The notes under the pieces were generated by a model. It saw only the letters and a program-made list of their open reading frames with translations, had not been told where the DNA came from and ran no database searches. Source: a virus (lineage: Duplodnaviria > Heunggongvirae > Uroviricota > Caudoviricetes). From it: 10,801 nucleotides of DNA. The DNA is taken from the IMG/VR virus record IMGVR_UViG_2529292726_000024, positions 1 through 10,801 of that record, one strand, 5' to 3'. Below, one piece after another: positions 1 to 10,801 of this stretch. How positions within the stretch are numbered: the first letter of the stretch is position 1; the number at the start of each line of letters is the position of its first letter. The translations under genes and the position numbers were made by a program.

Positions 1-223
1 GTAGCATCTCCAGCAGAGTTGTTGGTGTCAGAGCCGGCCTCTCTTTCAACAGAGGAACAAGCATGCTGTCCCACACAGCTTCCAGAGGATCTTTGCGTGT
101 GCGCCAGTGCCGAACACTGTTTTTTGCCCACTCTCCTTTTTCGATCCGACGACCAGAACGGACTGAGATACCAGCCTTCATGGCCGAGATATGCTGAGTT
201 ATACCTTTCTTACGCTGAGTCAT
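1..223 (-). CDS. hypothetical protein, N-terminal fragment (ORF continues beyond window start)
   Basis: Minus-strand ATG at 223-221 opens a frame (MTQRKKGITQHISAMKAGISVRSGRRIEKGEW...) that stays open to base 1; in-frame TAA upstream at 295-293 bounds the start. Absent from the ORF track because it has no stop in the window. Basic N-terminus, no clear Shine-Dalgarno. Function not recognised. Confidence 0.3.
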   Translation of the reverse strand, partial: MTQRKKGITQHISAMKAGISVRSGRRIEKGEWAKNSVRHWRTRKDPLEAVWDSMLVPLLKERPALTPTTLLEML

Positions 224-364
224 ATAGTAACTGACCTGAGAAGTATTGAGCGTCACGCCATTTCCTGTTGGATCATGTAAATGACACTCAGGTTACAAAA
301 CCGGCCAGAATAATCGGCGCCAGGCGGACTGAGTTATTGTCGTCTCATACTCCACGCTTATTTT

Positions 365-1705
365 TTAGGTAACGTCTAAGATTCGCTCAATGAAGCGCAT
401 TTGTTCGAGGTTTTGTTTAACGCGAATGCTGATCCCTCCCTGCTGGTTACGTGAACCAGCAAAGTAGAGACGAGCCTCTCCTTTCGCTTCTTCTTCTTCG
501 GTTTTGTTGATCGTTATTACCAGGTCAGCAATACGTACTTTTTCGATGTTGTCGGCAGCGTGCATCATTGTGGCAACTTCTGACGCGCCACCTTCACGGT
601 TTGTCTGCGATGCCGTGATCCCAGCAACGTTATGCTTGTCATAAAGAGCACGTAAATCGGTGTAGATACTACGAATGTTGGCGCGATCATCACGAAGGTC
701 ATAACTGGCACGCATCAAATCTGCGTAGTCGACAACAACCATGTCAGGCACCATGCCGTTGGCTTTCATGCTGTTAAGCACACGGTCCAGATCTGCCGGT
801 GACATACTTCCTGACGGACGCTCAACAACCCACAAACTACCAATACCCTTCGTAGCTCCCAACTCTGCCAACTTGCGATGAACTTCATCGCGCCGTTCCA
901 CCAACTTGGACATTTCCGTCTCCGACAATCTTGCATCAAAACGGTCGGATAAAATGGTGGTGTGAACCTCCAGCGAGAGATACAGAACATTGTAGCCAGC
1001 AAGTGTTGCGTTTATGGAAAACTCACCCATTGCGGTCGATTTACCGGATTTAGCGAACCCCATGAAGAGCACCATTTCGCGCTTTGCCCAGCCTTTTTGG
1101 TACAGCACCCTATCGAGAAGAGGGAGTCCAGTTGTAATACTGTTTGGTACATACTCCTCTGAAGCCTCATATTCACGCGCTTTCAATCGCTCACTTGCGG
1201 AGGTGTAGTAGTCATAGATTCCGGTCGCTTCGTTCGATCCAATCTGCTGAACCTTGGCCATGATTGCCATCGCCCCCTGAAAGTCGCCTTTCTCTTTCAG
1301 TTCAGCAGCCTTAATCAGAGCATCATCAAACGCTACACTTTTTGCGAAGGTTGATACCTGGTCAACCATGTACGAGGTATCGGACAATTTTTCTGCAAGA
1401 ATGCGCTTAAACGCAGCAACAACATCGGCGAATAGTTCCTCACGGATAGTCTTATCGCGTTTCGCACGCTTAAGCATATCCAGAATTGCAGATGAAGAGG
1501 GCGCGCTCTTGTACATACGGTAATAGCCCGAAACCATATTAACCAATATGGCATTGGCCGCATTGGCAAATTGGCTAGGCACAACCAGATCTCCCGCACG
1601 AGTAAGAAACTCGTGATCACGACAAAAATATGCCGTCAGTCTGTTCTGGAAATCTTCATCAAACTCTTCGGACAGCCCGCGTCCTGTATGGCAAAGTTCG
1701 GTCAT
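365..1705 (-). CDS. DnaB-family (SF4, RecA-fold) replicative DNA helicase
   Basis: 446-aa ORF; Walker A GFAKSGKST; DnaB-like motifs VVVDYADLM (Walker B/H2) and ITASQTNRE (H3); SD AAGGAA 5 nt upstream of ATG at 1705-1703. Family assignment from motifs seen in the translation. Confidence 0.82.
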   Translation of the reverse strand: MTELCHTGRGLSEEFDEDFQNRLTAYFCRDHEFLTRAGDLVVPSQFANAANAILVNMVSGYYRMYKSAPSSSAILDMLKRAKRDKTIREELFADVVAAFKRILAEKLSDTSYMVDQVSTFAKSVAFDDALIKAAELKEKGDFQGAMAIMAKVQQIGSNEATGIYDYYTSASERLKAREYEASEEYVPNSITTGLPLLDRVLYQKGWAKREMVLFMGFAKSGKSTAMGEFSINATLAGYNVLYLSLEVHTTILSDRFDARLSETEMSKLVERRDEVHRKLAELGATKGIGSLWVVERPSGSMSPADLDRVLNSMKANGMVPDMVVVDYADLMRASYDLRDDRANIRSIYTDLRALYDKHNVAGITASQTNREGGASEVATMMHAADNIEKVRIADLVITINKTEEEEAKGEARLYFAGSRNQQGGISIRVKQNLEQMRFIERILDVT

Positions 1706-1748
1706 GTGCTTTCCTTTGTTTTTTAAACAAATTGTTTTCTAGTATTAG

Positions 1749-2489
1749 TTAATTAGATAGGGGATCAATAAACCGCCGTGCTTCTTCCAGTTCTTCTGGA
1801 AAGTGGGCGTAAATAAGGCGCTCTGGAACGATTTCCATTAGCCAGATAGCGGAGAAAATTGCGCGTATGCGCTTGCTGCGAGGGATGGTGCGCAAACGCT
1901 CCAGAATCCACTCAAAATAGCTTTCCTGAATCGGGTTGAACTGCATGTCTCCCATATGCTTAAAGCTAACCAGAGAGTCATCCAGACGGGTTGTTGCGCG
2001 TCTGGCTAATTTCTCTTCAAATATCTCAATCAGTTCTGGCTGCCATAAATGCTGTGGGCGCGGCAGCTTGTCCCACAGCCGTCGTGCAGCTGCGGAAAGA
2101 ACGGTGGAGATAAAGTAGTCGTATGAGCAGCAATAGCGATCCGCAAACTGGCGTGCTTTCCATAGCGACGTTTTATTGGCAGTCGACAACTCCTGATAAG
2201 GCAGACGTTTTAACCCGGTGGTGAACGGAGCTGTTTCAAAGTGTTCGCGACCGTGCGTCAGCATGATATTTGAGTACTGACGTTTGTATGCCTCCGTAAA
2301 AAGACAGGTGGCCATGAGAGGATGCATGTCGCGGTAATCAAACCACTTCGTCTCGAAGAGTTCAGCCTCGTCTTTACAGCGCGACAAACCAATGTTTTCA
2401 GCGACCCACTTGTCCATAACAGCGGTATTCCACTCTGTCATGAAGTCGTACTGGTCGTTGTCGATGGTATCGAAAAAGATTTGGCTCAT
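1749..2489 (-). CDS. hypothetical protein, immediately upstream of the helicase gene (possible replication initiator or helicase loader by position only)
   Basis: Long ORF, 43-nt gap to helicase start, same strand. First ATG at 2489-2487 has SD AGGTGA 5 nt upstream; the track start at 2498 is a GTG. Aromatic-rich, no motif recognised. Confidence 0.6.
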   Translation of the reverse strand: MSQIFFDTIDNDQYDFMTEWNTAVMDKWVAENIGLSRCKDEAELFETKWFDYRDMHPLMATCLFTEAYKRQYSNIMLTHGREHFETAPFTTGLKRLPYQELSTANKTSLWKARQFADRYCCSYDYFISTVLSAAARRLWDKLPRPQHLWQPELIEIFEEKLARRATTRLDDSLVSFKHMGDMQFNPIQESYFEWILERLRTIPRSKRIRAIFSAIWLMEIVPERLIYAHFPEELEEARRFIDPLSN

Positions 2490-2498
2490 GTGGCTCAC

Positions 2499-2591
2499 CT
2501 GGTGGGTAGTTACTTACTTATCACAATGAGCGGATGATAGCGACTGGTGGCAGTTTTTGGAAGTGAAAACGGAAGGGAGTTGTTCTGGTGG
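2499..2591. repeat. three direct CTGGTGG heptamer repeats in the divergent control region (candidate iterons/operators)
   Basis: CTGGTGG at 2499-2505, 2544-2550 and 2585-2591 (spacing 45 and 41 bp); the first overlaps the SD of the 246-aa gene on the opposite strand. None is preceded by G, so none is a canonical Chi octamer. Confidence 0.4.
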
Positions 2592-2714
2592 TGTCTTTTA
2601 AAAGACCTGCTTCCGTATATATTTAATAAGTTACTTATTATTTATATACAGAAACAGGCTCCTAATGGATACCAAGAACAACATAATTTGACTCCAACCC
2701 CAGATGCTATGTCA

Positions 2715-2748
2715 TTGACAGATTTATCAAGGGAGATCATGTTAGAAT
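2715..2748 (+). promoter_or_regulatory. candidate sigma70-type promoter for the 352-aa ORF
   Basis: TTGACA at 2715-2720 and extended -10-like TGtTAGAAT at 2740-2748; spacing 22 bp is longer than optimal, so this is weak evidence. Confidence 0.25.
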
Positions 2749-2778
2749 CAGTGTTTTAGCCTCGTGGATATTGTCACC

Positions 2779-3837
2779 ATGCGCATGAATAGACTTCCAG
2801 GATATGGCCTTCCCGAACTGGCTTTTTGGCCTCAGCCTAAATATGAACGGAATAAATGGTCGATGTTCTGTCTGAAACTCCGTAATGATGGAACCCTTGC
2901 TTGGTATCGGCGATATGTTGATCGTGGTATGCCAAACCACGCTTTTGATGACGACTACGATAACTATCCTGAAGCAAGAAAAGCGGCATTAGAGCTGAAT
3001 AAAAACGTGAGCTTTGACATTGAAAAACTTCCTCTATCTATGTTTCAAAAGAAGTCATTGCGTTTGAAAGTTGACAAAGCACTCAAAGCCAAATCACGTC
3101 TCATGGATGAAGAGCATATAATGCTCAACGAAGCAATTAAGGCACACGCCAACGATCCGCGAGTGACATTAAATGAGTTAATAATTAACCCAGATTACGA
3201 AACTTTGCGTCAACCCCTTTTTGACGTGCTAAGCGAGATGCCTTACTTACATTTTGTTTTTCTTCCCAAATTCCAAGTTTCACTTCAACTCGTTGCTCCT
3301 AACACTTGGGAATGTTCATATAACAACAAAGCTAAGACAGCGAAGATCTGCTACCAAGAACGCATAGCCAGAGGTTTTGGTTTATCAGGTGCTGCACATT
3401 GGGGAAAAACAAAAGCGACTATTCGCTCAATGCTTCTGCCGCGTGCTAACCGGTTACTGCAACTCGCCAGCGTAAAAAGAATGCTGGATGAAGCTCTCAG
3501 GAATGGGCAAAAGGTACTGGTTGTTGGCAACTTTGTTTTCTGGTTTGAGGACAAAAATCAGGTAGGTTGGAGTGTTAAAGTTGCTAGCGAAAGCGAAACC
3601 ACCTCAAGAGGCAATACGCTCTGGAAAGAAGGAACTATCATTTCAAAAAATCACGGTCGAATTGTCGTGCTGCCGTATACAAAAGAAAACGGTAAACATG
3701 TAAAAGGTTATACCAAGAATGCCCCTAACGACGGCAACGCAATTCCGAGACATAAGGATGAGTATGTCGAGTTGCCCTTTGAAATTTTGGATGGTGACTT
3801 GATGTTCAGTCTGTTCGGTGAGCTTAACTACGAATAG
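2779..3837 (+). CDS. hypothetical protein (352 aa from ATG 2779; 357 aa if the GTG at 2764 is used), orphan accessory gene of unknown function
   Basis: Uninterrupted ORF on the strand opposite to both flanking modules; terminator-like hairpin downstream; AT-richer than neighbours by hand count (3001-3060 about 32% GC versus about 45% for 1381-1440 in the helicase). No Walker, HTH, TM or nuclease motif recognised. Start codon uncertain; no strong SD. Confidence 0.6.
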   Translation: MRMNRLPGYGLPELAFWPQPKYERNKWSMFCLKLRNDGTLAWYRRYVDRGMPNHAFDDDYDNYPEARKAALELNKNVSFDIEKLPLSMFQKKSLRLKVDKALKAKSRLMDEEHIMLNEAIKAHANDPRVTLNELIINPDYETLRQPLFDVLSEMPYLHFVFLPKFQVSLQLVAPNTWECSYNNKAKTAKICYQERIARGFGLSGAAHWGKTKATIRSMLLPRANRLLQLASVKRMLDEALRNGQKVLVVGNFVFWFEDKNQVGWSVKVASESETTSRGNTLWKEGTIISKNHGRIVVLPYTKENGKHVKGYTKNAPNDGNAIPRHKDEYVELPFEILDGDLMFSLFGELNYE

Positions 3838-3854
3838 CTTTCATAGAACGAAAT

Positions 3855-3892
3855 ATTTCTAAGGCTGTCCAATGCAGACCAGCCTTAGAGAT
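3855..3892. terminator. bidirectional terminator-like hairpin between convergent genes
   Basis: Stem 3855-3867 pairs with 3880-3892 (core CTAAGGCTG / CAGCCTTAG, 9 perfect bp, extendable to 13 with one wobble), 12-nt loop; T-rich flank on both strands. Lies between the stop at 3835-3837 (+) and the stop at 3900-3898 (-). Confidence 0.45.
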
Positions 3893-3897
3893 TTATA

Positions 3898-4257
3898 TCA
3901 ACCTTTCTTCATTAACTCGCGTTTAATTTCATCGGTACGCATCGTGACATCGGCAGCGGTGATCGCCTCATTCAATTTCACGATGTCCTCGATTTCCTGC
4001 GGTGACTTCTCTGCCAGATGGAAAATGGCTGCTCGAATCACGTCAGAACGAGTGAACTTCTCGAAGCGAGGGATGAACTTCATCATCTCCAGCAGTTCGA
4101 AGTATTCGTCCTCCAGTGACATTGTGCGGCTTTTAATTTTCTCTTTGCCACGAGTCGGGCGTCCCTGTGGTCTGACTGGTTGGCGCAAAGGAGTTGTGTT
4201 CTTAGCCGGTGCATCAGGCTCTTTGCGCTTTGCTAGGTCACCCATTTTCATGGACAT
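3898..4257 (-). CDS. small partition-locus partner protein (ParG/ParB-like centromere-binding protein candidate)
   Basis: 119-aa ORF whose ATG (4257-4255) overlaps the ParA stop (4259-4257) as TAATG; basic, Pro-rich N-terminal tail and short C-terminal domain, typical of small partner proteins of ParF-type ATPases. Assignment is by context, not motif. Confidence 0.5.
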   Translation of the reverse strand: MSMKMGDLAKRKEPDAPAKNTTPLRQPVRPQGRPTRGKEKIKSRTMSLEDEYFELLEMMKFIPRFEKFTRSDVIRAAIFHLAEKSPQEIEDIVKLNEAITAADVTMRTDEIKRELMKKG

Positions 4258-4925
4258 TATTCTTCTTCCTCCAGACTCAACAGATAATCTACAAATTCTT
4301 CAAACTCGGCTTCCGCCTTTTTGTCGCGCTCGCTACCGGTCATTTCAAAGATAGAACGACCAGACTCTTCCGCATCATCATAGACGTTGCGGTTATATAG
4401 ATTGACTGGCGCAGACTCGATTCCAAACGTCTCAACAATCTCTTTAGCCGCCAGAATGCGAGACACTTGTGATGGCAAAGCCGGGCACTGGTTCATGACC
4501 GCGCGGACCTTCACTTTATCGTTTACATTGCGAACATTGTCGATAATAGGATCGATGTCACGTAAAGATTTCAAATCACGACGCTTAGGACGCAGCGGGA
4601 TAATGATAACGTCAGCCATCAGCATCGCTTGTCGCTGAATTTCGGAGTCGAAGCCACCAGCATCTACCACTACAAACTCAGCTCTACCCTGAAGCGATTT
4701 TAGGTGCTTAATGATGTCATCCTGAACGTATGCAAAAGGAATCAGCTCAAGGTCTTCGTTCTGTCGACGGTCTTCACACCAGCTCGTTGTCGTGCGCTGA
4801 ATATCTATATCGGTAATATAAACCTTCTTCTTCTTTTTGACTTTCAGGCAAACGGCAATTTGCTGGGCAACGGTGGATTTGCCAGGCCCGCCCTTTGTGC
4901 CGCCAACCACAAAGATCTTGGTCAT
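4257..4925 (-). CDS. ParA/ParF-family partition ATPase (deviant Walker A)
   Basis: 222 aa; deviant Walker A GGTKGGPGKST near the N-terminus; acidic C-terminus; small size typical of type Ib ParA. Confidence 0.8.
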   Translation of the reverse strand: MTKIFVVGGTKGGPGKSTVAQQIAVCLKVKKKKKVYITDIDIQRTTTSWCEDRRQNEDLELIPFAYVQDDIIKHLKSLQGRAEFVVVDAGGFDSEIQRQAMLMADVIIIPLRPKRRDLKSLRDIDPIIDNVRNVNDKVKVRAVMNQCPALPSQVSRILAAKEIVETFGIESAPVNLYNRNVYDDAEESGRSIFEMTGSERDKKAEAEFEEFVDYLLSLEEEE

Positions 4926-4960
4926 TGGAGAGTTCCCTTTGCGTATATAATTATCGTCTG

Positions 4961-4973
4961 AAACAACTTGTTT
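4961..4973. promoter_or_regulatory. palindrome upstream of parA-like gene (candidate operator/centromere element)
   Basis: AAACAA-c-TTGTTT at 4961-4973, about 36 bp upstream of the parA ATG. Additional inverted repeat GTACGG-N7-CCGTAC at 5105-5123 in the same intergenic region. Confidence 0.25.
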
Positions 4974-5128
4974 TCTTATATGTGATATAGCCTAAATGCC
5001 TACGGCTGCGGTGTAAAGGTTAAATGGTAGGTTGTGATTAACAATTGGCAAACATAGCTTGTATTTGTCTGTTGAAAAAAGTAACAATGACCTCTATATT
5101 ACAAGTACGGTGATATGCCGTACACAAT

Positions 5129-5188
5129 TTGATAATGCACACGTAATGGGCTATAGCCTTTTAAAGTAATTTTTGAGTCGAAAACTCA
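5129..5188 (+). promoter_or_regulatory. candidate promoter and operator of the toxin-antitoxin operon
   Basis: TTGATA (5129-5134), 17-bp spacer, TATAGC (5152-5157); downstream inverted repeat TGAGT-cgaaa-ACTCA at 5174-5188, positioned like an autoregulatory operator. Confidence 0.3.
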
Positions 5189-5243
5189 GTTTGAACAGAG
5201 GAGATTGATGGCCTTCCTACATCACGGCCATCAGGAGGAATAC

Positions 5244-5513
5244 ATGTCAGCACTAAAAAAGCAGCGCATCGATTTGAGATTAACCGATGACGATAAAAGC
5301 ATCATCGAGGAAGCTGCCGCAATGTCTAACCAGAGCATTACTCAGTTTATGGTTAGCAGTGCATCTGAACGTGCCGTGAAAGTTATAGAGCAACACCGTA
5401 GACTAGTTCTGAATGAAGAATCCTGGAATCTGGTTATGGACGCTATAAGCAATCCTCCGGCACCGAACGACAAGCTGAAACGAGCTGCTGATCGTCTGAA
5501 AAGCATGGAGTAG
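5244..5513 (+). CDS. type II antitoxin, DUF1778 (RHH) family, AtaR/TacA/KacA-like
   Basis: MSALKKQRIDLRLTDDDKS... matches the conserved N-terminus of DUF1778 antitoxins as I remember them. SD AGGAGG 5 nt upstream of ATG 5244; an alternative in-frame ATG at 5208 also has an SD. Stop is 7 nt before the toxin start. Confidence 0.8.
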   Translation: MSALKKQRIDLRLTDDDKSIIEEAAAMSNQSITQFMVSSASERAVKVIEQHRRLVLNEESWNLVMDAISNPPAPNDKLKRAADRLKSME

Positions 5514-5520
5514 TTTACTC

Positions 5521-6042
5521 GTGGATAATATAAAGATAGAAATTTTCTCTGGAGAGAAAGATTATGATTTGAATGGTTTTGATTGCGGTGAAGAATCACT
5601 AAATGCCTTTTTAACCAACCACTTAAAAAGGCAGCATGAGGGAAAAATTCTTCGCGCTTATGTGCTTTGCACGAAAGAAGGCAGACCAAAAGTGTTAGGG
5701 TATTACACTTTGTCAGGTAGCTGCTTTGAAAAGGAGTCCTTACCTTCAAGAAGCCAGCAAAAGAAGGTACCTTATCGGAATGTTCCAAGTGTTACTTTGG
5801 GTAGGCTGGCTTTGGACAAGTCCCTTCAAGGTCAAGGATTTGGCTCAATGCTTGTAACACATGCAATGCGCGTTGTGTACAATGCATCTCTTGCTGTAGG
5901 CATTCATGGACTTTTCGTTGAGGCGTTAAATGACAAAGCCAAGGCGTTTTATAAAAGTTTAGACTTTATCCAGCTGGTTGGTAACAACGAGCGTTCTTTG
6001 TTCTATCCTACAAAATCTATCGAAAAATTGTTCGAAGAATAA
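5521..6042 (+). CDS. GNAT-family N-acetyltransferase toxin (AtaT/TacT/ItaT-like, aminoacyl-tRNA acetylating)
   Basis: 173 aa, GTG start; acetyl-CoA-binding motif LQGQGFGSML; conserved FDCGEE and VGIHGLFVEALN segments remembered from AtaT-family toxins; directly downstream of the DUF1778 antitoxin. Confidence 0.8.
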   Translation: MDNIKIEIFSGEKDYDLNGFDCGEESLNAFLTNHLKRQHEGKILRAYVLCTKEGRPKVLGYYTLSGSCFEKESLPSRSQQKKVPYRNVPSVTLGRLALDKSLQGQGFGSMLVTHAMRVVYNASLAVGIHGLFVEALNDKAKAFYKSLDFIQLVGNNERSLFYPTKSIEKLFEE

Positions 6043-6047
6043 TGTAC

Positions 6048-6065
6048 TCCCCTCAAGTGAGGGGA
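6048..6065 (-). terminator. terminator-like hairpin between the converging TA operon and the minus-strand membrane cassette
   Basis: TCCCCTCA (6048-6055) pairs with TGAGGGGA (6058-6065); on the minus strand it follows the stop at 6076-6074 and precedes a U-rich stretch; the plus-strand flank is not U-rich. Confidence 0.35.
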
Positions 6066-6073
6066 ACTTCGCA

Positions 6074-6289
6074 TCACCAACCGCAAACTCTCTCTCCCAT
6101 CGTATTGTGAAAAAGGATTTGGCGTTCGGTTTCTTCGGTCATCACATCATTATTGCTGATATAGATAGGCCCAGCTCCATCGCAGAACAATACGCTGGCG
6201 GTTTGTGGTTTAATGACGCACCCACTTATCATACAACTCACGATGAACGGCAGAAGCATCTTTCTGACGTATTTTATTGCTCGTCTCAT
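6074..6289 (-). CDS. candidate o-spanin-like outer-membrane lipoprotein, overlapping the 3-prime end of the upstream gene in the +1 frame
   Basis: Lipoprotein signal MRRAIKYVRKMLLPFIVSCMISGC with lipobox ISGC (alternative start at ATG 6259). Overlaps the 6210-6461 gene by 80 nt in another frame, the classic overlapped Rz/Rz1 arrangement. Mature part is not proline-rich, so the assignment is tentative. Confidence 0.4.
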   Translation of the reverse strand: MRRAIKYVRKMLLPFIVSCMISGCVIKPQTASVLFCDGAGPIYISNNDVMTEETERQILFHNTMGERVCGW

Positions 6290-6461
6290 TCACCACTTCC
6301 ACTGTGCTTTGAAGTCGTTTTCTGTCTTCCTGTTTTGCCTTCTCTTCCATTGCTCGTCGCGCCGCATTCCCGCCCATCGTGTAAGCGCCGACAAGAACGA
6401 AAAGAACGGCAGCCAGCGTAATCAAAGCAACTTTTAGCTTTGTCATCAGGCTGCCTAGCAT
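6210..6461 (-). CDS. candidate i-spanin-like protein (N-terminal TM helix, charged periplasmic helix)
   Basis: ATG at 6461-6459 with SD AAGGGA upstream; MLGSLMTKLKVALITLAAVLFVLVGAYT is a single N-terminal TM, followed by a charged helical region (AARRAMEEKAKQEDRKRLQ...). Short (83 aa) for an Rz-like protein. Confidence 0.42.
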   Translation of the reverse strand: MLGSLMTKLKVALITLAAVLFVLVGAYTMGGNAARRAMEEKAKQEDRKRLQSTVEVVNETSNKIRQKDASAVHRELYDKWVRH

Positions 6462-6462
6462 A

Positions 6463-7155
6463 TTAGACCATCCCTTTCTGGTGTTTTCTTCCCTGCGACC
6501 AGGCAATGAATCCTGCCACAACAATAGTGGCAATACCGAAGATGATGCGTACTGTATCCCCGCTAGAGATATGACCTTGTGCTTTATCCATAGCAGCGGA
6601 AACCTGCGGCATAACATCGGCCAGCTGCGCCAGACCAATACCTGCTGTAACAGTTGCGCCTGCGGTTTCTTTAGTTACAGGAACAGCCTTCACGGTTTTC
6701 ACCGGCTTAACAACGCCAGCTCGACGCAGACCTTCCTCAATAACTTCTACCGCATACCAGGTGTTCAGCGTTTTTAGCGGGCCTCGGCCATTCTCGTGGC
6801 GAATGATTGCCTCAACCAAAGGTCGAAGGATGTCGTAATCATGCAGATCGATGATCATGTCTGCGGTTACACCAACGGCTTTAGACACCTCATTAATGTA
6901 GGCGTCAGTATTGTTTTCATTCGGCGGTGCCCAACGTTCAATAACTTCACGAATGGTATCGATACTTGAGCCGTCTTTTGCGCGACGTTTGTCGTGGTAG
7001 GTAATTAGAGTCACCGCCAGCGCACGAATCCCCCAAACAGGGTCTTTAAACGTGCAAAAGCGCGGTTCGTCTGGATTCGCAACCAGACCTTGCCACGGTG
7101 ATCCTTTATCAAGATTACCGGGGTTATTATTACGAATGCCTCTCGGAGTCTTCAT
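6463..7155 (-). CDS. tail-anchored membrane protein (C-terminal TM); endolysin-like only by its position in the cassette, unverified
   Basis: 230 aa from ATG 7155 (SD AGGAG 7 nt upstream; the track start at 7182 is a GTG). N-terminal soluble domain with RNNNPGNL, C-terminal TM IIFGIATIVVAGFIAW. No catalytic motif of a known muralytic family recognised. Confidence 0.4.
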   Translation of the reverse strand: MKTPRGIRNNNPGNLDKGSPWQGLVANPDEPRFCTFKDPVWGIRALAVTLITYHDKRRAKDGSSIDTIREVIERWAPPNENNTDAYINEVSKAVGVTADMIIDLHDYDILRPLVEAIIRHENGRGPLKTLNTWYAVEVIEEGLRRAGVVKPVKTVKAVPVTKETAGATVTAGIGLAQLADVMPQVSAAMDKAQGHISSGDTVRIIFGIATIVVAGFIAWSQGRKHQKGMV

Positions 7156-7168
7156 CCTTGATCTCCTG

Positions 7169-7492
7169 TTATTGCAGTCCACTTTTTACGCCATACGCGG
7201 CTAACCCCAAAAGCAGTGCGGTAATAATGAACGACGTTATTTTAGAAACAATGCCGCCAAAGAACCCACTTGAGATGGAATCTAACCGGTTAAGGAGTTT
7301 GTCCAGATTGGAGTGTTGAATACTATGTTGCGCCGGGGTCATATCACCAAAGTAGGTTTTCAGCTGATCATTGACCTCCTGGCCAATTTCTTCACGTAGC
7401 TCTTTACCTAATTTGCCAACAACCTCCCGAGCAACGATCGCGGCAATACGCTCAACTTGCTCTGTTGTAACGCCCGCCATCTCGTTCGACAT
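7169..7492 (-). CDS. small tail-anchored membrane protein (holin-like by position, unverified)
   Basis: ATG at 7492 has a strong SD GGAGG 5 nt upstream (alternative ATG at 7504 lacks one). About 85-aa charged N-terminal region then a single C-terminal TM ITSFIITALLLGLAAYGV. Stop is 13 nt before the next gene. Confidence 0.4.
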   Translation of the reverse strand: MSNEMAGVTTEQVERIAAIVAREVVGKLGKELREEIGQEVNDQLKTYFGDMTPAQHSIQHSNLDKLLNRLDSISSGFFGGIVSKITSFIITALLLGLAAYGVKSGLQ

Positions 7493-7573
7493 GTTTTCCT
7501 CCATGAAAAGTCAAATCGGGATGGCGGATTTATATCACATTTCACCCTTTTGTTGTAGGTGTGTACTTACCTA

Positions 7574-7807
7574 TCATTCAGCATTGCAACCGATTGATGA
7601 GAAAGCACCTACTCCAACCCATCGCCAGTTATAGATGCTACCCGCTTTGTATAAGGTATAGTCGTTCACTTTTTTAACAGCATATATGGGTATGACTGTC
7701 TCCTGTCCACCAATGATAGCTTCACCATAACATATAGGTGTCGGCAATTTCTGGCAGCCAGTAAGAGAGAGAACAACAGCTATTGTTAGAAATAATCTTT
7801 TCATCAT
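7574..7807 (-). CDS. small lipoprotein, 77 aa (candidate Cor-like superinfection-exclusion lipoprotein)
   Basis: Signal peptide MMKRLFLTIAVVLSLTGC with lipobox LTGC; starts 4 nt after the stop of the 202-aa gene; size and position after the tail-fibre genes recall Cor-type lipoproteins of lambdoid/N15-like phages, but sequence similarity is not verified. Confidence 0.55.
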   Translation of the reverse strand: MMKRLFLTIAVVLSLTGCQKLPTPICYGEAIIGGQETVIPIYAVKKVNDYTLYKAGSIYNWRWVGVGAFSSIGCNAE

Positions 7808-7814
7808 TTACTCA

Positions 7815-8423
7815 TCAGTTATACAGATTTCTATTTATTACCGGTACTCTGCCATTTACGCTAAAACTATGGCCGCCATTAAGTTGGTTTACGAATATCG
7901 AGCTAACAGTATTTCCATATGCCGCATATCCATAAACCATTGTCATGGCTCCGCCCGGTACTGGAACAGCGAACACATTCGCATATGTTGGGATTATCGC
8001 TGGAGGGTAATCAAAAACATGCCCTCCAGAGCTGTTCCACTCCGTATTATTAAGAAAGGTAAATGAAAGTGGGATATTTGCCGTATTATAGATTTCCTCC
8101 CCTTGTGCATTGAAAAAACTCATGCCCCAAGTTTCTTTTTTGGCTATACCTTTCGAAAATACGTATATCGTGGCACTAGAGTCGCTACCCTGACCTCCGA
8201 AACTGTAAATCACCTGGTTGTTACGCACTATTCTGTTGGCTATTAATGAAACAGCTTTCGAATAGGCAACAAAAATAATCGGTGAACGATCTGGAGATAT
8301 TTTGGTGTTAAACTCTGTTCCGCCGGACAAAGAAACAACCTGCTTTCTCTGAAAAACGATAGGAGACAAAGAAGGAGACATCCAGACCTTCCCGTCAGAT
8401 CGATATATCTTGCTTCCGTACAT
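7815..8423 (-). CDS. hypothetical protein, 202 aa, Gly/Ser/Asn/Tyr-rich, probably beta-rich
   Basis: ATG at 8423-8421 overlaps the stop of the upstream gene as TAATG (translational coupling). No TM segment or catalytic motif seen. Confidence 0.55.
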   Translation of the reverse strand: MYGSKIYRSDGKVWMSPSLSPIVFQRKQVVSLSGGTEFNTKISPDRSPIIFVAYSKAVSLIANRIVRNNQVIYSFGGQGSDSSATIYVFSKGIAKKETWGMSFFNAQGEEIYNTANIPLSFTFLNNTEWNSSGGHVFDYPPAIIPTYANVFAVPVPGGAMTMVYGYAAYGNTVSSIFVNQLNGGHSFSVNGRVPVINRNLYN

Positions 8424-8677
8424 TATTTTTGAAAAACCAATATGTTTAAATTACCACTAGCTCCAGACCACGAAATGGTATTTCCAGAAACCGTAAGACT
8501 TGTGTACTTTCCATTGGTTACGTCCATTATGTAATAGTCGATTCCCAATCCCGCCTCAACCTCATATGTTCTACTTCCTGAACCAGAGGGAGTAAAATAA
8601 TCGAGGTAATAAACAGGGGCCAACGCATTGACCATCTCCTGTCTTGATGGCGACCAAACCTGTGCACCATAGCTCAT
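8423..8677 (-). CDS. hypothetical protein, 84 aa
   Basis: ATG at 8677 with SD AAGGA 7 nt upstream; first gene after the tail-fibre stop; coupled to the 202-aa gene. No motif recognised. Confidence 0.5.
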   Translation of the reverse strand: MSYGAQVWSPSRQEMVNALAPVYYLDYFTPSGSGSRTYEVEAGLGIDYYIMDVTNGKYTSLTVSGNTISWSGASGNLNILVFQK

Positions 8678-8702
8678 AAATATATCCTTATACTTTTAAG
8701 CA

Positions 8703-8725
8703 GGGGCTGGTTTAGCTCCAGCCCC
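8703..8725. other. GC-rich hairpin between the tail-fibre gene and the downstream cassette
   Basis: GGGGCTGG (8703-8710) pairs with CCAGCCCC (8718-8725), 7-nt loop. U-rich flank only on the plus strand, so it is not a convincing terminator for the minus-strand operon; possibly an RNA-stability or processing element. Confidence 0.3.
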
Positions 8726-8737
8726 GATTGAAGTTGT

Positions 8738-10534
8738 TTATTCTTTAGGTGAATTTAACTTCGTTTCAAGCTCCTCAACCCTTTTGGTCAATTGCTGAAT
8801 ATGATGAATGAGTGGTACAACCAAACGCTCATACATCACTCCTTCAGCGACCATACCATTTGAGGAAATACCTTCTGGAGAATCATTATTTGTTGGTTCA
8901 CGCCAATGGACATATTGCGGGGCAATCTCACCAACCTCTTCAGCAATAAGGCCGTAATACCCCCAATCCTTTCGGTCACCTCGACAAATTGAACGATACC
9001 AAACAGGTCTTAATGACAAAAGTTCATCAGCATATCGATCTTGTAATGTTTCAATATCCTTTTTATAGCGCCTTGAAGACGTTGAACGCCAAACTGTATT
9101 GATACCTGGGTTTGGATCAATGTACATATTGGCACCGCTAGTAGTTGTGCCAATATCCCATATAGCAAACCCTCCACTACCGCCTGATTTGACAACCAGT
9201 GTTTCAGCAACAATATCCAGGTTGCCACTATAGCCTGTCAGTGATGATCTGCTTGCATAGGAACTTAGAAGGTTTGCTACCTCTGTTTTCGTGTAAGCAT
9301 TAAGGTTAGCCGCAGTCAAAGTTATATCGGCAGAGCCATCAAACGCCACACCAGCAATTTTCCTTGCTGTCTGCAATTTTGTGGCGGTTGCGGCATTACC
9401 AGTAGTGTTCTGATTACCAGTGGCATTCACACCAGGAATGGAGTCCCTTGATGTATATACCTGCGCCCACGCTGACCATGCCGCAACTGTGTAATCTCTT
9501 CGGGAGCGAATGAAAACCGGCGCATGTGCACCGCTCGTACCACTCCAGCCAATAAGCAACTCGCCCTCACCAGCAGCACTCGCACCTTTCATGTGCAATA
9601 CGTTGCCATACGTGGTCGGGTAGCTATTGTTGTACACCTCATACATTTGAATGCCAGCAGTGCCTTGAGTAGAGCCGCTTAACGCCGTAACTCGGCCACG
9701 AGATACCAATGTATTAATATTGATATCGCCTGAACCATCAAACTTAACACCATTGATGTTTCTCGCTGTTTGCAACTTCGTAGCTGTTGAAGCATTACCG
9801 TTCAAACTACCATTTACGCCACCAGTCACATTTAGTCCATTACCAATTGATACAGCACCGCTGGTATTATTAATTGTAATAGGTCGCAAACCGTTCCATG
9901 AACCTAATGTGTCTCCTGATGCTGTTAGCAGGAAATATGTGTTCGCCCCATCATTACGGATAAAGAACCCAAAGTTACCGTAAGCAATGCGGAAACCATT
10001 TGCATATTTTGAAACGATCTCACCAGAAGACGTTAACCCTCCAGATAATGTGCCACCTGAAAGCGGTAATGCTCCTACATCAGAAGCTGTTGGTTTGTTT
10101 CTAGTGTTATACGCTCTGCGCCATCCAGGTGAATAACTTGAGCCATTAGACACATAGATAAACTCCGCATTAGTGAGTGCACCAGAGACATTTGTCGTAG
10201 TGGCCGTTGTTATTCGAATGGTGTAATTGTTGGTATTATTGCTGAATACTTCTATCACAGCACCCGCCAGTGGAATAATGCCACAACCAGTTTCACTGTC
10301 TGGTATGGATGCACTATTCGCATACGCCCATGCACAACGAGCGATCCATGCTTTCGTACTGAATGCCCCGTTATTTTGCAACAAAGTAACTAACTGGGCT
10401 GTCGTTATTGCCCCTCCATTACTTCCTGTAGTTAACCAACCAGTAGGAGATGCCGGGCAACCTATATTTGCTGGCGACAAGGCAATATTTGCCGAGCCGT
10501 CAAACGACACCCCATTGATAGTACGCGCAGTCTG
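8738..10534 (-). pseudogene. tail fibre protein with C-terminal S74 intramolecular-chaperone domain, 5-prime truncated by IS2 insertion
   Basis: Three copies of the tail-fibre repeat LQTAR-INGV-FDGS; C-terminal domain with SSRRYKKDI (S74 auto-cleavage consensus) and ...VPLIHHIQQLTKRVEELETKL. The reading frame runs into the IS2 left end at 10535, so the first ~45 codons of the 643-aa track ORF derive from IS2. Confidence 0.8.
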
Positions 10535-10801
10535 TAGACTGCCCCCCTGAATCTCCAGACAACCAGTATCACTTAAATAAGTGATAGTCTTAATACTAGT
10601 TTTTAGACTAGTCATTGGAGAACAGATGATTGATGTCTTAGGGCCGGAGAAACGCAGACGGCGTACCACACAGGAAAAGATCGCAATTGTTCAGCAGAGC
10701 TTTGAACCGGGGATGACGGTCTCCCTCGTTGCCCGGCAACATGGTGTAGCAGCCAGCCAGTTATTTCTCTGGCGTAAGCAATACCAGGAAGGAAGTCTTA
10801 C
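10535..10801 (+). mobile_element. IS2 (IS3 family), left end, partial (runs off window)
   Basis: Sequence from TAGACTG at 10535 through the insC start matches the IS2 left end as I remember it (near-identical, one or two mismatches in the terminal repeat). Boundary good to about 3 bp. Confidence 0.85.
10626..10801 (+). CDS. insC: IS2 transposase OrfA (InsC), N-terminal part
   Basis: [58 protein letters not shown] is the recognised InsC N-terminus; SD GGAG upstream; ORF continues beyond the window. Confidence 0.85.

Follow-up and report, generated by a model that had tools for sequence, protein, structure and literature searches.

Positions 7492 to 6074 on the minus strand of IMG/VR virus record IMGVR_UViG_2529292726_000024 (positions 1 to 10,801 of that record, a stretch of 10,801 nucleotides (nt) hereafter called the window) very probably hold the lysis cassette of an SSU5-like phage-plasmid, with an endolysin of the Enc34/M4Lys type and a two-component spanin. 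The assignment draws on gene structure, family memberships, conserved catalytic residues and synteny. The cassette is already known: near-identical copies have been annotated, a crystal structure and lysis experiments exist for the endolysin type, and the spanins have been catalogued. Its sole part that is not explained by prior work is the 107-amino-acid (aa) product of the first gene. The features of the region are as follows.

7169..7492, minus strand: cassette gene 1, 107-aa membrane protein (phrog_5093), predicted to be tail-anchored
6463..7155, minus strand: cassette gene 2, 230-aa endolysin, Enc34/M4Lys type by sequence
6210..6461, minus strand: cassette gene 3, 83-aa putative i-spanin (Rz-like)
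6074..6289, minus strand: cassette gene 4, putative o-spanin (Rz1-like) lipoprotein, 71-aa precursor
6046..6067: GC-rich hairpin, terminator-like site reading GTTCCCCTCACTTGAGGGGAGT on the minus strand (consensus match only)

An earlier note on this DNA had described a four-gene membrane cassette at 6074-7492, and all four open reading frames (ORFs) are indeed present there on the minus strand. The lysis function that it considered is borne out by the annotated cassettes of two relatives and by the endolysin and spanin family matches. A megablast search with positions 5900-7900 retrieved Escherichia phage Cyrano (98.5% nucleotide identity) and Salmonella phage SSU5 (82%), and both records annotate these four genes as holin, endolysin, Rz and Rz1. 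The SSU5 (SSU5_026-030) and Cyrano (CYRAN_22-25) cassettes are identical to that of the window in gene set, order and orientation, and apart from the annotation of the Rz1 coding sequence (CDS) there is essentially no difference between them; identities between the window and SSU5 proteins are 95% (107-aa protein), 93% (endolysin), 78% (Rz) and 69% (Rz1). With such near-identical annotated copies, the cassette is not divergent, as the earlier note had supposed it might be. The same gene order is found in ~75 IMG/VR contigs and the cassette is present in 406 PLSDB plasmids, so the four-gene order is not due to chance.

Organization and expression of the cassette

According to the six-frame ORF list and the sequence, four co-directional genes exactly fill the minus-strand span 7492-6074. 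The 107-aa gene is preceded by a perfect GGAGG Shine-Dalgarno sequence 5 nt before the ATG at 7492, whereas the upstream in-frame ATG at 7504 lacks a ribosome-binding site, and 7492 is therefore the right start. The 230-aa gene begins 13 nt after the stop of the 107-aa gene, and the Rz gene begins 1 nt after the endolysin stop. The cassette is positioned after the tail-fibre genes and ends at the hairpin at 6046-6067, which separates the Rz1 gene from a convergent tacT-like toxin gene and, as a consensus match only, is the likely terminator of the lysis operon, possibly a bidirectional one. No sigma-70 promoter was found in a scan of positions 5900-8000; the cassette is probably transcribed by read-through from upstream late genes. 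Pfam and NCBIfam scans of all four proteins returned nothing significant, and it was the searches against PHROGs and PDB sequences that proved informative.

The membrane-anchored endolysin

By sequence, the 230-aa protein is a member of the characterized Enc34/M4Lys endolysin type (PHA02564), which provides the muralytic family that the earlier note had been unable to assign to this protein with its RNNNPGNL motif. Its residues 3-151 match PDB 7q47_A, the catalytic domain of ORF39 of Hafnia phage Enc34 (Cernooka et al. 2022, PMC8943055), at E=3.5e-54 (phmmer against the PDB), and the protein matches the phrog_873 endolysins at E=2e-88. Residues 4-15 read PRGIRNNNPGNL. W75 (in ERWAPP), Y86 (DAYINE) and E121 (RHENG) correspond to Enc34 Trp79, Tyr95 and Glu131, of which Glu131 is catalytic and the other two are conserved (PMC8943055); all three are invariant in a five-sequence alignment with Salmonella, Pseudomonas and Aeromonas homologues, which also keep the architecture of the transmembrane domain (TMD). 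Identity to the Chi-like 'lysis protein A' is 55% over the full length, and tblastn detected full-length homologues at 46-56% identity in Chi-like and other Casjensviridae.

Hydropathy was computed on the Kyte-Doolittle scale with a 19-residue window (KD19, or KD). After the PHA02564 catalytic domain (~1-150) come a linker, a Gly/Ala/Thr-rich helix of weak hydrophobicity at ~164-182 (KD 1.1), a strong transmembrane (TM) helix at 201-219 (KD 2.0) and the basic tail RKHQKGMV. The proteins of the first two genes thus both have C-terminal TM segments, as had been noticed before. For the 230-aa protein, a single such segment is correct as far as the strong helix at 201-219 is concerned, but it leaves out the weaker helix at ~164-182, and homologues have been described with a two-helix TMD. 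The N-terminus, MKTPRGIRNNNPGN, is hydrophilic and hydrophobic segments are C-terminal only; in the absence of a weakly hydrophobic N-terminal signal-anchor-release (SAR) domain, a SAR endolysin was ruled out. The layout is that of Enc34 ORF39, BSPM4 M4Lys and the Siskin-type Chi-like endolysins, to which the protein is 46-58% identical over the full length and which share with it the PRGIRNNNPGN N-terminus, the catalytic Glu, Trp and Tyr, the proximal weakly hydrophobic helix, the ISSG turn, the distal TM helix and the basic tail; an N-terminal catalytic domain combined with a C-terminal TMD and a basic tail has been described in each of these cases (PMC8943055, PMC7143992, PMC6498227). A C-terminal TMD is likewise needed for membrane localization and lysis in LysAP of Acidovorax phage AP1, a GH24 lysozyme with a catalytic fold unrelated to that of the 230-aa endolysin.

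Function has been studied experimentally in these homologues. The Enc34 enzyme is most probably a GH73-like N-acetylglucosaminidase; full-length ORF39 is toxic, and its truncated catalytic domain is active on cells with a permeabilized outer membrane (PMC8943055). M4Lys alone lyses Escherichia coli, and this lysis is unaffected by a Sec inhibitor; removal of the TMD or of the last 13 residues abolishes lysis, the TMD alone is only bacteriostatic, and the domain devoid of the TMD degrades murein that has been purified (Bai et al. 2020, PMC7143992). For the orientation of the TMD, the authors of the Siskin study predict an N-in/C-in hairpin (PMC6498227), whereas those of the M4Lys study favour N-out (PMC7143992).

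The same catalytic domain was also found by tblastn, without the rest of the protein, inside the virion, internal-core and tape-measure proteins of ~800 phage records, which accounts for additional PHROG matches to 'head', 'tail' and 'injection transglycosylase' families. Such occurrences, together with the Cor-type exclusion genes immediately upstream of the cassette, could be taken to mean that the cassette or its first two genes are non-lytic and serve superinfection exclusion, envelope remodelling or, as a virion-associated murein hydrolase, entry. We consider this highly improbable: a ~230-aa protein consisting of the catalytic domain and a C-terminal TMD has the format of the stand-alone Chi-like lysis enzymes, not of the large virion proteins, a spanin pair flanks the endolysin, and M4Lys lyses from within (PMC7143992). 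The broader proposal of the earlier note, a different membrane-associated function, is likewise without support.

The overlapped spanin pair

The matches of the 83-aa protein to phrog_1026 (E=4e-24) and of the lipoprotein to phrog_1275 (E=2e-24), both Rz-like spanin families, support a two-component spanin pair of the overlapped type, in agreement with the earlier reading of the last two genes and with the spanin census of Kongari 2018, in which the SSU5 i-spanin is a singleton in the overlapped class and the SSU5 o-spanin belongs to the Chi family. The 83-aa protein has an N-terminal TM segment at ~7-27, followed by ~56 charged, helical residues predicted to be periplasmic, and is 37% identical to a Pseudomonas Casjensviridae homologue. 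The lipoprotein precursor carries the signal peptide MRRAIKYVRKMLLPFIVSCMISG followed by C, with the previously recognized lipobox ISGC, cleavage before Cys24 (ISG/C) and a mature length of 48 aa; its +2 residue is Val, not the Asp of inner-membrane retention. Identity to the o-spanin of Chi-like phage SPN19 is 40%, with two conserved periplasmic Cys residues and a C-terminal GERxCGW.

The Rz1 gene starts within the Rz gene, 172 nt downstream of the Rz start (6461-6289 = 172 = 3x57+1), and is therefore in the +1 frame relative to Rz, as had been noted. It had also been called embedded; since it overlaps Rz by only 80 nt and extends 136 nt past the Rz stop, the architecture is overlapped instead. 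In this respect the pair resembles other overlapped two-component spanins (P2 LysB/LysC and the Chi/Enc34 family), which likewise combine a type-II i-spanin with an o-spanin that is a lipoprotein of the outer membrane and whose gene, in the +1 frame, starts within that of the i-spanin and extends beyond it; unlike in those spanins, the window i-spanin is short (83 aa) and lacks a periplasmic Cys.

In Cyrano, the Rz1 CDS (CYRAN_25; 5176-5295 in our copy of the locus, L001) comprises 120 nt from a GTG and lacks the signal peptide and the lipobox, and the SSU5 record lists two alternative Rz1 starts. PGAP/RefSeq names the cassette genes 'hypothetical protein', and RefSeq plasmid records show only three such proteins under the cassette, with Rz1 apparently uncalled. 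Both the GTG start in Cyrano and the uncalled Rz1 of the RefSeq plasmids look like annotation errors.

Compared with the window, the IMG/VR loci (L008-L085) show identities of 62-100% for Rz1 and 63-100% for Rz, and mostly 87-100% for the 107-aa protein and the endolysin. Rz1 identity among these relatives varies independently of the other cassette genes, a pattern typical of mosaicism, which indicates that spanin alleles have probably been exchanged by recombination within the SSU5 group.

The 107-aa protein in the holin position

The earlier note had doubted that the protein in the holin position is a conventional holin, and with good reason. Family searches against endolysins and holins, which it had proposed, succeeded for the endolysin and gave no holin family for the 107-aa protein: none of the holin models of Pfam, PHROG or NCBIfam matches, nor does any other Pfam or NCBIfam family, and its only match is phrog_5093 (E=2e-68), a family annotated as of unknown function. 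In our phage collection it was confined to SSU5-like records, a word-indexed search retrieved only relatives with at least 59% identity, and a search for related loci with an alignment of five family members yielded mainly SSU5-like loci. A profile search of 1.84 billion cluster representatives yielded 63 relatives (E<=1e-3), most of them ~100-140 aa long and with the same layout. In an alignment of 31 relatives (94-143 aa), all of which match phrog_5093 and none of which matches Pfam, G49, H56 and H60 are invariant within the motif YFGDMTxxQHxxQHxRxDKLL...D..S.NFWG, after which comes the TM helix. The invariant Gly and the HxxxH, with the two His residues four apart on one helical face, could form a metal-binding or pH-sensing site.

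The single hydrophobic segment lies at ~81-102 (KD19 2.0) and is followed by the 5-residue tail KSGLQ; this TM region is the best conserved part of the protein and is rich in Gly and other small residues (GFFGG...LGLAAYG). Across phrog_5093, the N-terminal part comprises 80-115 residues, is net acidic and lacks a signal sequence, and the C-terminal tail averages 9 residues with a charge of +1.2. These features make it almost certain that the protein is tail-anchored and lies mostly in the cytoplasm (N-in/C-out). An AlphaFold2 (AF2) model built with the 31 diverse sequences reached a pLDDT of 85.8 (47 with a shallow alignment) and consists of two long helices, 10-48 and 53-103, with a break at the invariant Gly. 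A Foldseek search of the model against BFVD and PDB gave no meaningful match, as is expected for two long helices.

Three more specific identities were considered and rejected. In Chi-like phages, unlike in the window, the upstream partner of the endolysin is a ~112-aa protein with an N-terminal TM, a proposed 'class IV' holin (PMC6498227); the comparison with this Siskin/Enc34 ORF38 type gave an hhalign probability of 0.6% (against the SPN19 112-aa protein), with the TM at the opposite end. Homology to the Mu gp25 releasin (DUF2730/PF10805) fared no better, with an hhalign probability of 0.2% and no PF10805 match in the window protein or the 31 relatives. A dual-start (holin/antiholin) motif, MSNEM, is present, but relatives do not keep its second Met.

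Gene neighbourhoods of distant phrog_5093 members

More distant relatives, 25-40% identical to the 107-aa protein, place the family in lysis regions beyond the SSU5 group. In every distinct non-SSU5 context examined, the lysis region begins with the phrog_5093 gene, upstream of which lie tail-fibre or other structural-type genes. The genes found downstream of it in the individual loci (L numbers) are listed below.

L088, L092: in this order, Holin_2-3, an SLT transglycosylase that has an N-terminal TM, and an i-spanin-like gene
L089: GH19, followed by a 2-TM protein
L091: two small TM proteins, then a GH24 lysozyme
L096: Peptidase_M15_3, then a 1-TM protein, then an i-spanin-like gene
L006, L086, L094: M15-type peptidases
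L007: small TM proteins, with no recognizable endolysin nearby

The endolysins of phrog_5093 cassettes thus belong to at least five unrelated families (PHA02564, SLT, GH19, GH24 and M15). The family belongs to lysis cassettes without being bound to one endolysin type, which argues against a specific partnership with the anchored endolysin. Furthermore, most non-SSU5 cassettes encode another small protein with 1-3 TM segments, of which PHROG scans named only one a holin (the Holin_2-3 of the L088/L092 lineage), so that the holin need not be the phrog_5093 protein. The SLT endolysins of L088 (4684-5400) and L092 (1114-1830) have an N-terminal TM helix (KD 2.4-2.7), which suggests that these enzymes may be SAR or signal-anchored endolysins downstream of Holin_2-3.

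That the 107-aa protein is nevertheless the true and sole holin of its cassette is quite possible, if short of probable. As a tail-anchored single-TM holin or pinholin, it would build up in the inner membrane, depolarize or hole it and thereby free or activate the tethered endolysin. A small protein with at least one TMD beside the endolysin is what is expected of a holin, and the 107-aa product, with one TM, is encoded by the first cassette gene directly upstream of the endolysin; its conserved, Gly-rich TM region would suit this role, the SSU5-type cassette has no further small TM gene, and phrog_5093 goes with lysis cassettes whatever the endolysin type. Cyrano and SSU5 are annotated accordingly, a label that rests on gene position only. 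The other attributes of holins, membership of a described family and a highly charged, hydrophilic C-terminal domain, are missing: the tail comprises only ~5 aa and is not a charged cytoplasmic tail. In addition, almost all non-SSU5 cassettes have a further small 1-3 TM protein, recognized as Holin_2-3 in L088 and L092, and the homologous endolysin M4Lys lyses without any holin (PMC7143992).

The co-occurrence of phrog_5093 with other holin-like proteins, and the invariant G...HxxxH of the soluble domain, which suggests a site for specific interaction or for sensing and not simply a pore former, fit another possible role, to which we give a little less credence. The protein would here be a membrane-tethered regulator of lysis at the cytoplasmic face, an antiholin or an analogue of the Mu gp25 releasin, that times the endolysin TMD or a separate holin. 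Mu gp25 is its closest functional analogy, not a relative: both would be membrane-tethered, mostly cytoplasmic, helical lysis-region proteins of ~100 aa that are paired, like DUF2730 in general, with diverse endolysins, anchored as well as soluble. The dimensions of Mu gp25 (99 aa in all, of which 73 form the cytoplasmic domain and 4 are periplasmic, with one TM) mirror the ~80 cytoplasmic residues, TM and 5 external residues predicted here. The correspondence is one of analogy, however, with no sequence relation to DUF2730; Mu gp25 has its TM at the N-terminus and its gene downstream of the endolysin, whereas the 107-aa protein has a C-terminal TM and an upstream gene, and strong conservation of the TM would equally fit a pore former.

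Proposed lysis pathway

Whichever role the 107-aa protein plays, the assignment of the region as the lysis cassette of an SSU5-like phage-plasmid leads to a pathway for which we infer the topology, the order of events and the contribution of that protein. The cassette would be expressed late for host lysis. The endolysin, with a GH73/GH23-like lysozyme alpha-lobe fold, would most probably act as an N-acetylglucosaminidase with Glu121 as the catalytic acid; a TMD of its own at the C-terminus would anchor it at the inner membrane, with the C-terminus and its basic tail RKHQK on the cytoplasmic side. By analogy with M4Lys and Enc34 ORF39, it may be through the TMD that the catalytic domain gains access to the murein, with no need of Sec and possibly none of a separate holin. 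The 107-aa protein, helical, membrane-tethered and probably cytoplasmic, would set or assist the timing of the membrane step, as a single-TM holin or pinholin or as a regulator. After cleavage of the murein, the 83-aa i-spanin would span the periplasm together with the o-spanin, a lipoprotein of 48 aa, and the two would fuse the inner and outer membranes.

Several points weigh against this account. Even in M4Lys and Enc34 it is puzzling how a catalytic domain at the N-terminus gets to the periplasm when the anchor is C-terminal. Bond specificity in the Enc34/M4Lys endolysins is an assignment from structure, and mass spectrometry of M4Lys also pointed to an endopeptidase-like product (PMC7143992). 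The i-spanin, with ~56 periplasmic residues, is short. As for the 107-aa protein, it fits no holin family, and its C-terminus does not carry the charged tail that holins typically have. Finally, our literature search found no functional work on SSU5 lysis genes, on tail-anchored holins or on any phrog_5093 protein, and no published experiment on this cassette.

Carriers and neighbouring genes

The PLSDB carriers of the cassette are mostly ~110-kb non-mobilizable replicons from E. coli, Enterobacter and Salmonella, and some of the 406 records are known CTX-M-15 carriers. The 107-aa gene also occurs, at 91% identity, in a 2,959-bp GenBank record named 'Klebsiella phage Kpn_R1' (PQ800163.1), which may be the cloned lysis region of an unpublished functional study. 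In the divergent relatives L083 and L084, a ~1.3-kb insert between the endolysin and Rz genes (L083 4986-6299) splits the cassette and encodes a 93-aa lipoprotein and a 220-aa protein.

Outside the cassette, the gene content of the window is in keeping with an SSU5-like phage-plasmid and includes a DnaB-like helicase, ParA, a TacA/GNAT-toxin pair, a Cor-like lipoprotein and a tail fibre with an S74 chaperone domain. The TacA-like antitoxin (PF08681, E=9e-26) and the GNAT acetyltransferase toxin (5205-6042, plus strand), the latter annotated KacT in Cyrano, converge on the lysis cassette, and the two transcription units have the hairpin at 6046-6067 in common. Between the tail fibre and the cassette, positions 7574-8423 (minus strand) encode a lipoprotein of the Cor-like superinfection-exclusion type (phrog_1119) as well as a 'membrane associated protein' (phrog_425). 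A 357-aa ORF without a Pfam match (2764-3837, plus strand) is located in a low-GC stretch (41-42%); at the corresponding place beside the par genes, Cyrano carries a 267-aa hypothetical gene on the other strand, and this region therefore appears to be variable. Directly downstream of parA, and overlapping its stop, a 119-aa ORF (3898-4257, minus strand) has no Pfam match and is labelled 'RelE/ParE putative toxin' in Cyrano; to judge by where it lies, it may instead encode a small centromere-binding partner of the ParB/ParG type.

Implications

The finding is an ordinary one: this lysis cassette is the standard one in a group of enterobacterial phage-plasmids that is very common. The assignments could be propagated to the RefSeq/PGAP records, which name the genes 'hypothetical protein' and usually lack Rz1. 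In the cassette, an endolysin with a C-terminal anchor, the export of which still puzzles the literature, is combined with an uncharacterized tail-anchored protein. Tentatively, phrog_5093 could be an undescribed family of phage lysis proteins, maybe with a mechanism distinct from that of canonical holins, which may be, for example, a cytoplasm-facing trigger, an antiholin or a releasin-like control of membrane-anchored endolysins or partner holins. As the family heads cassettes with many endolysin types, the role of its members could reveal another route to the timing of lysis.

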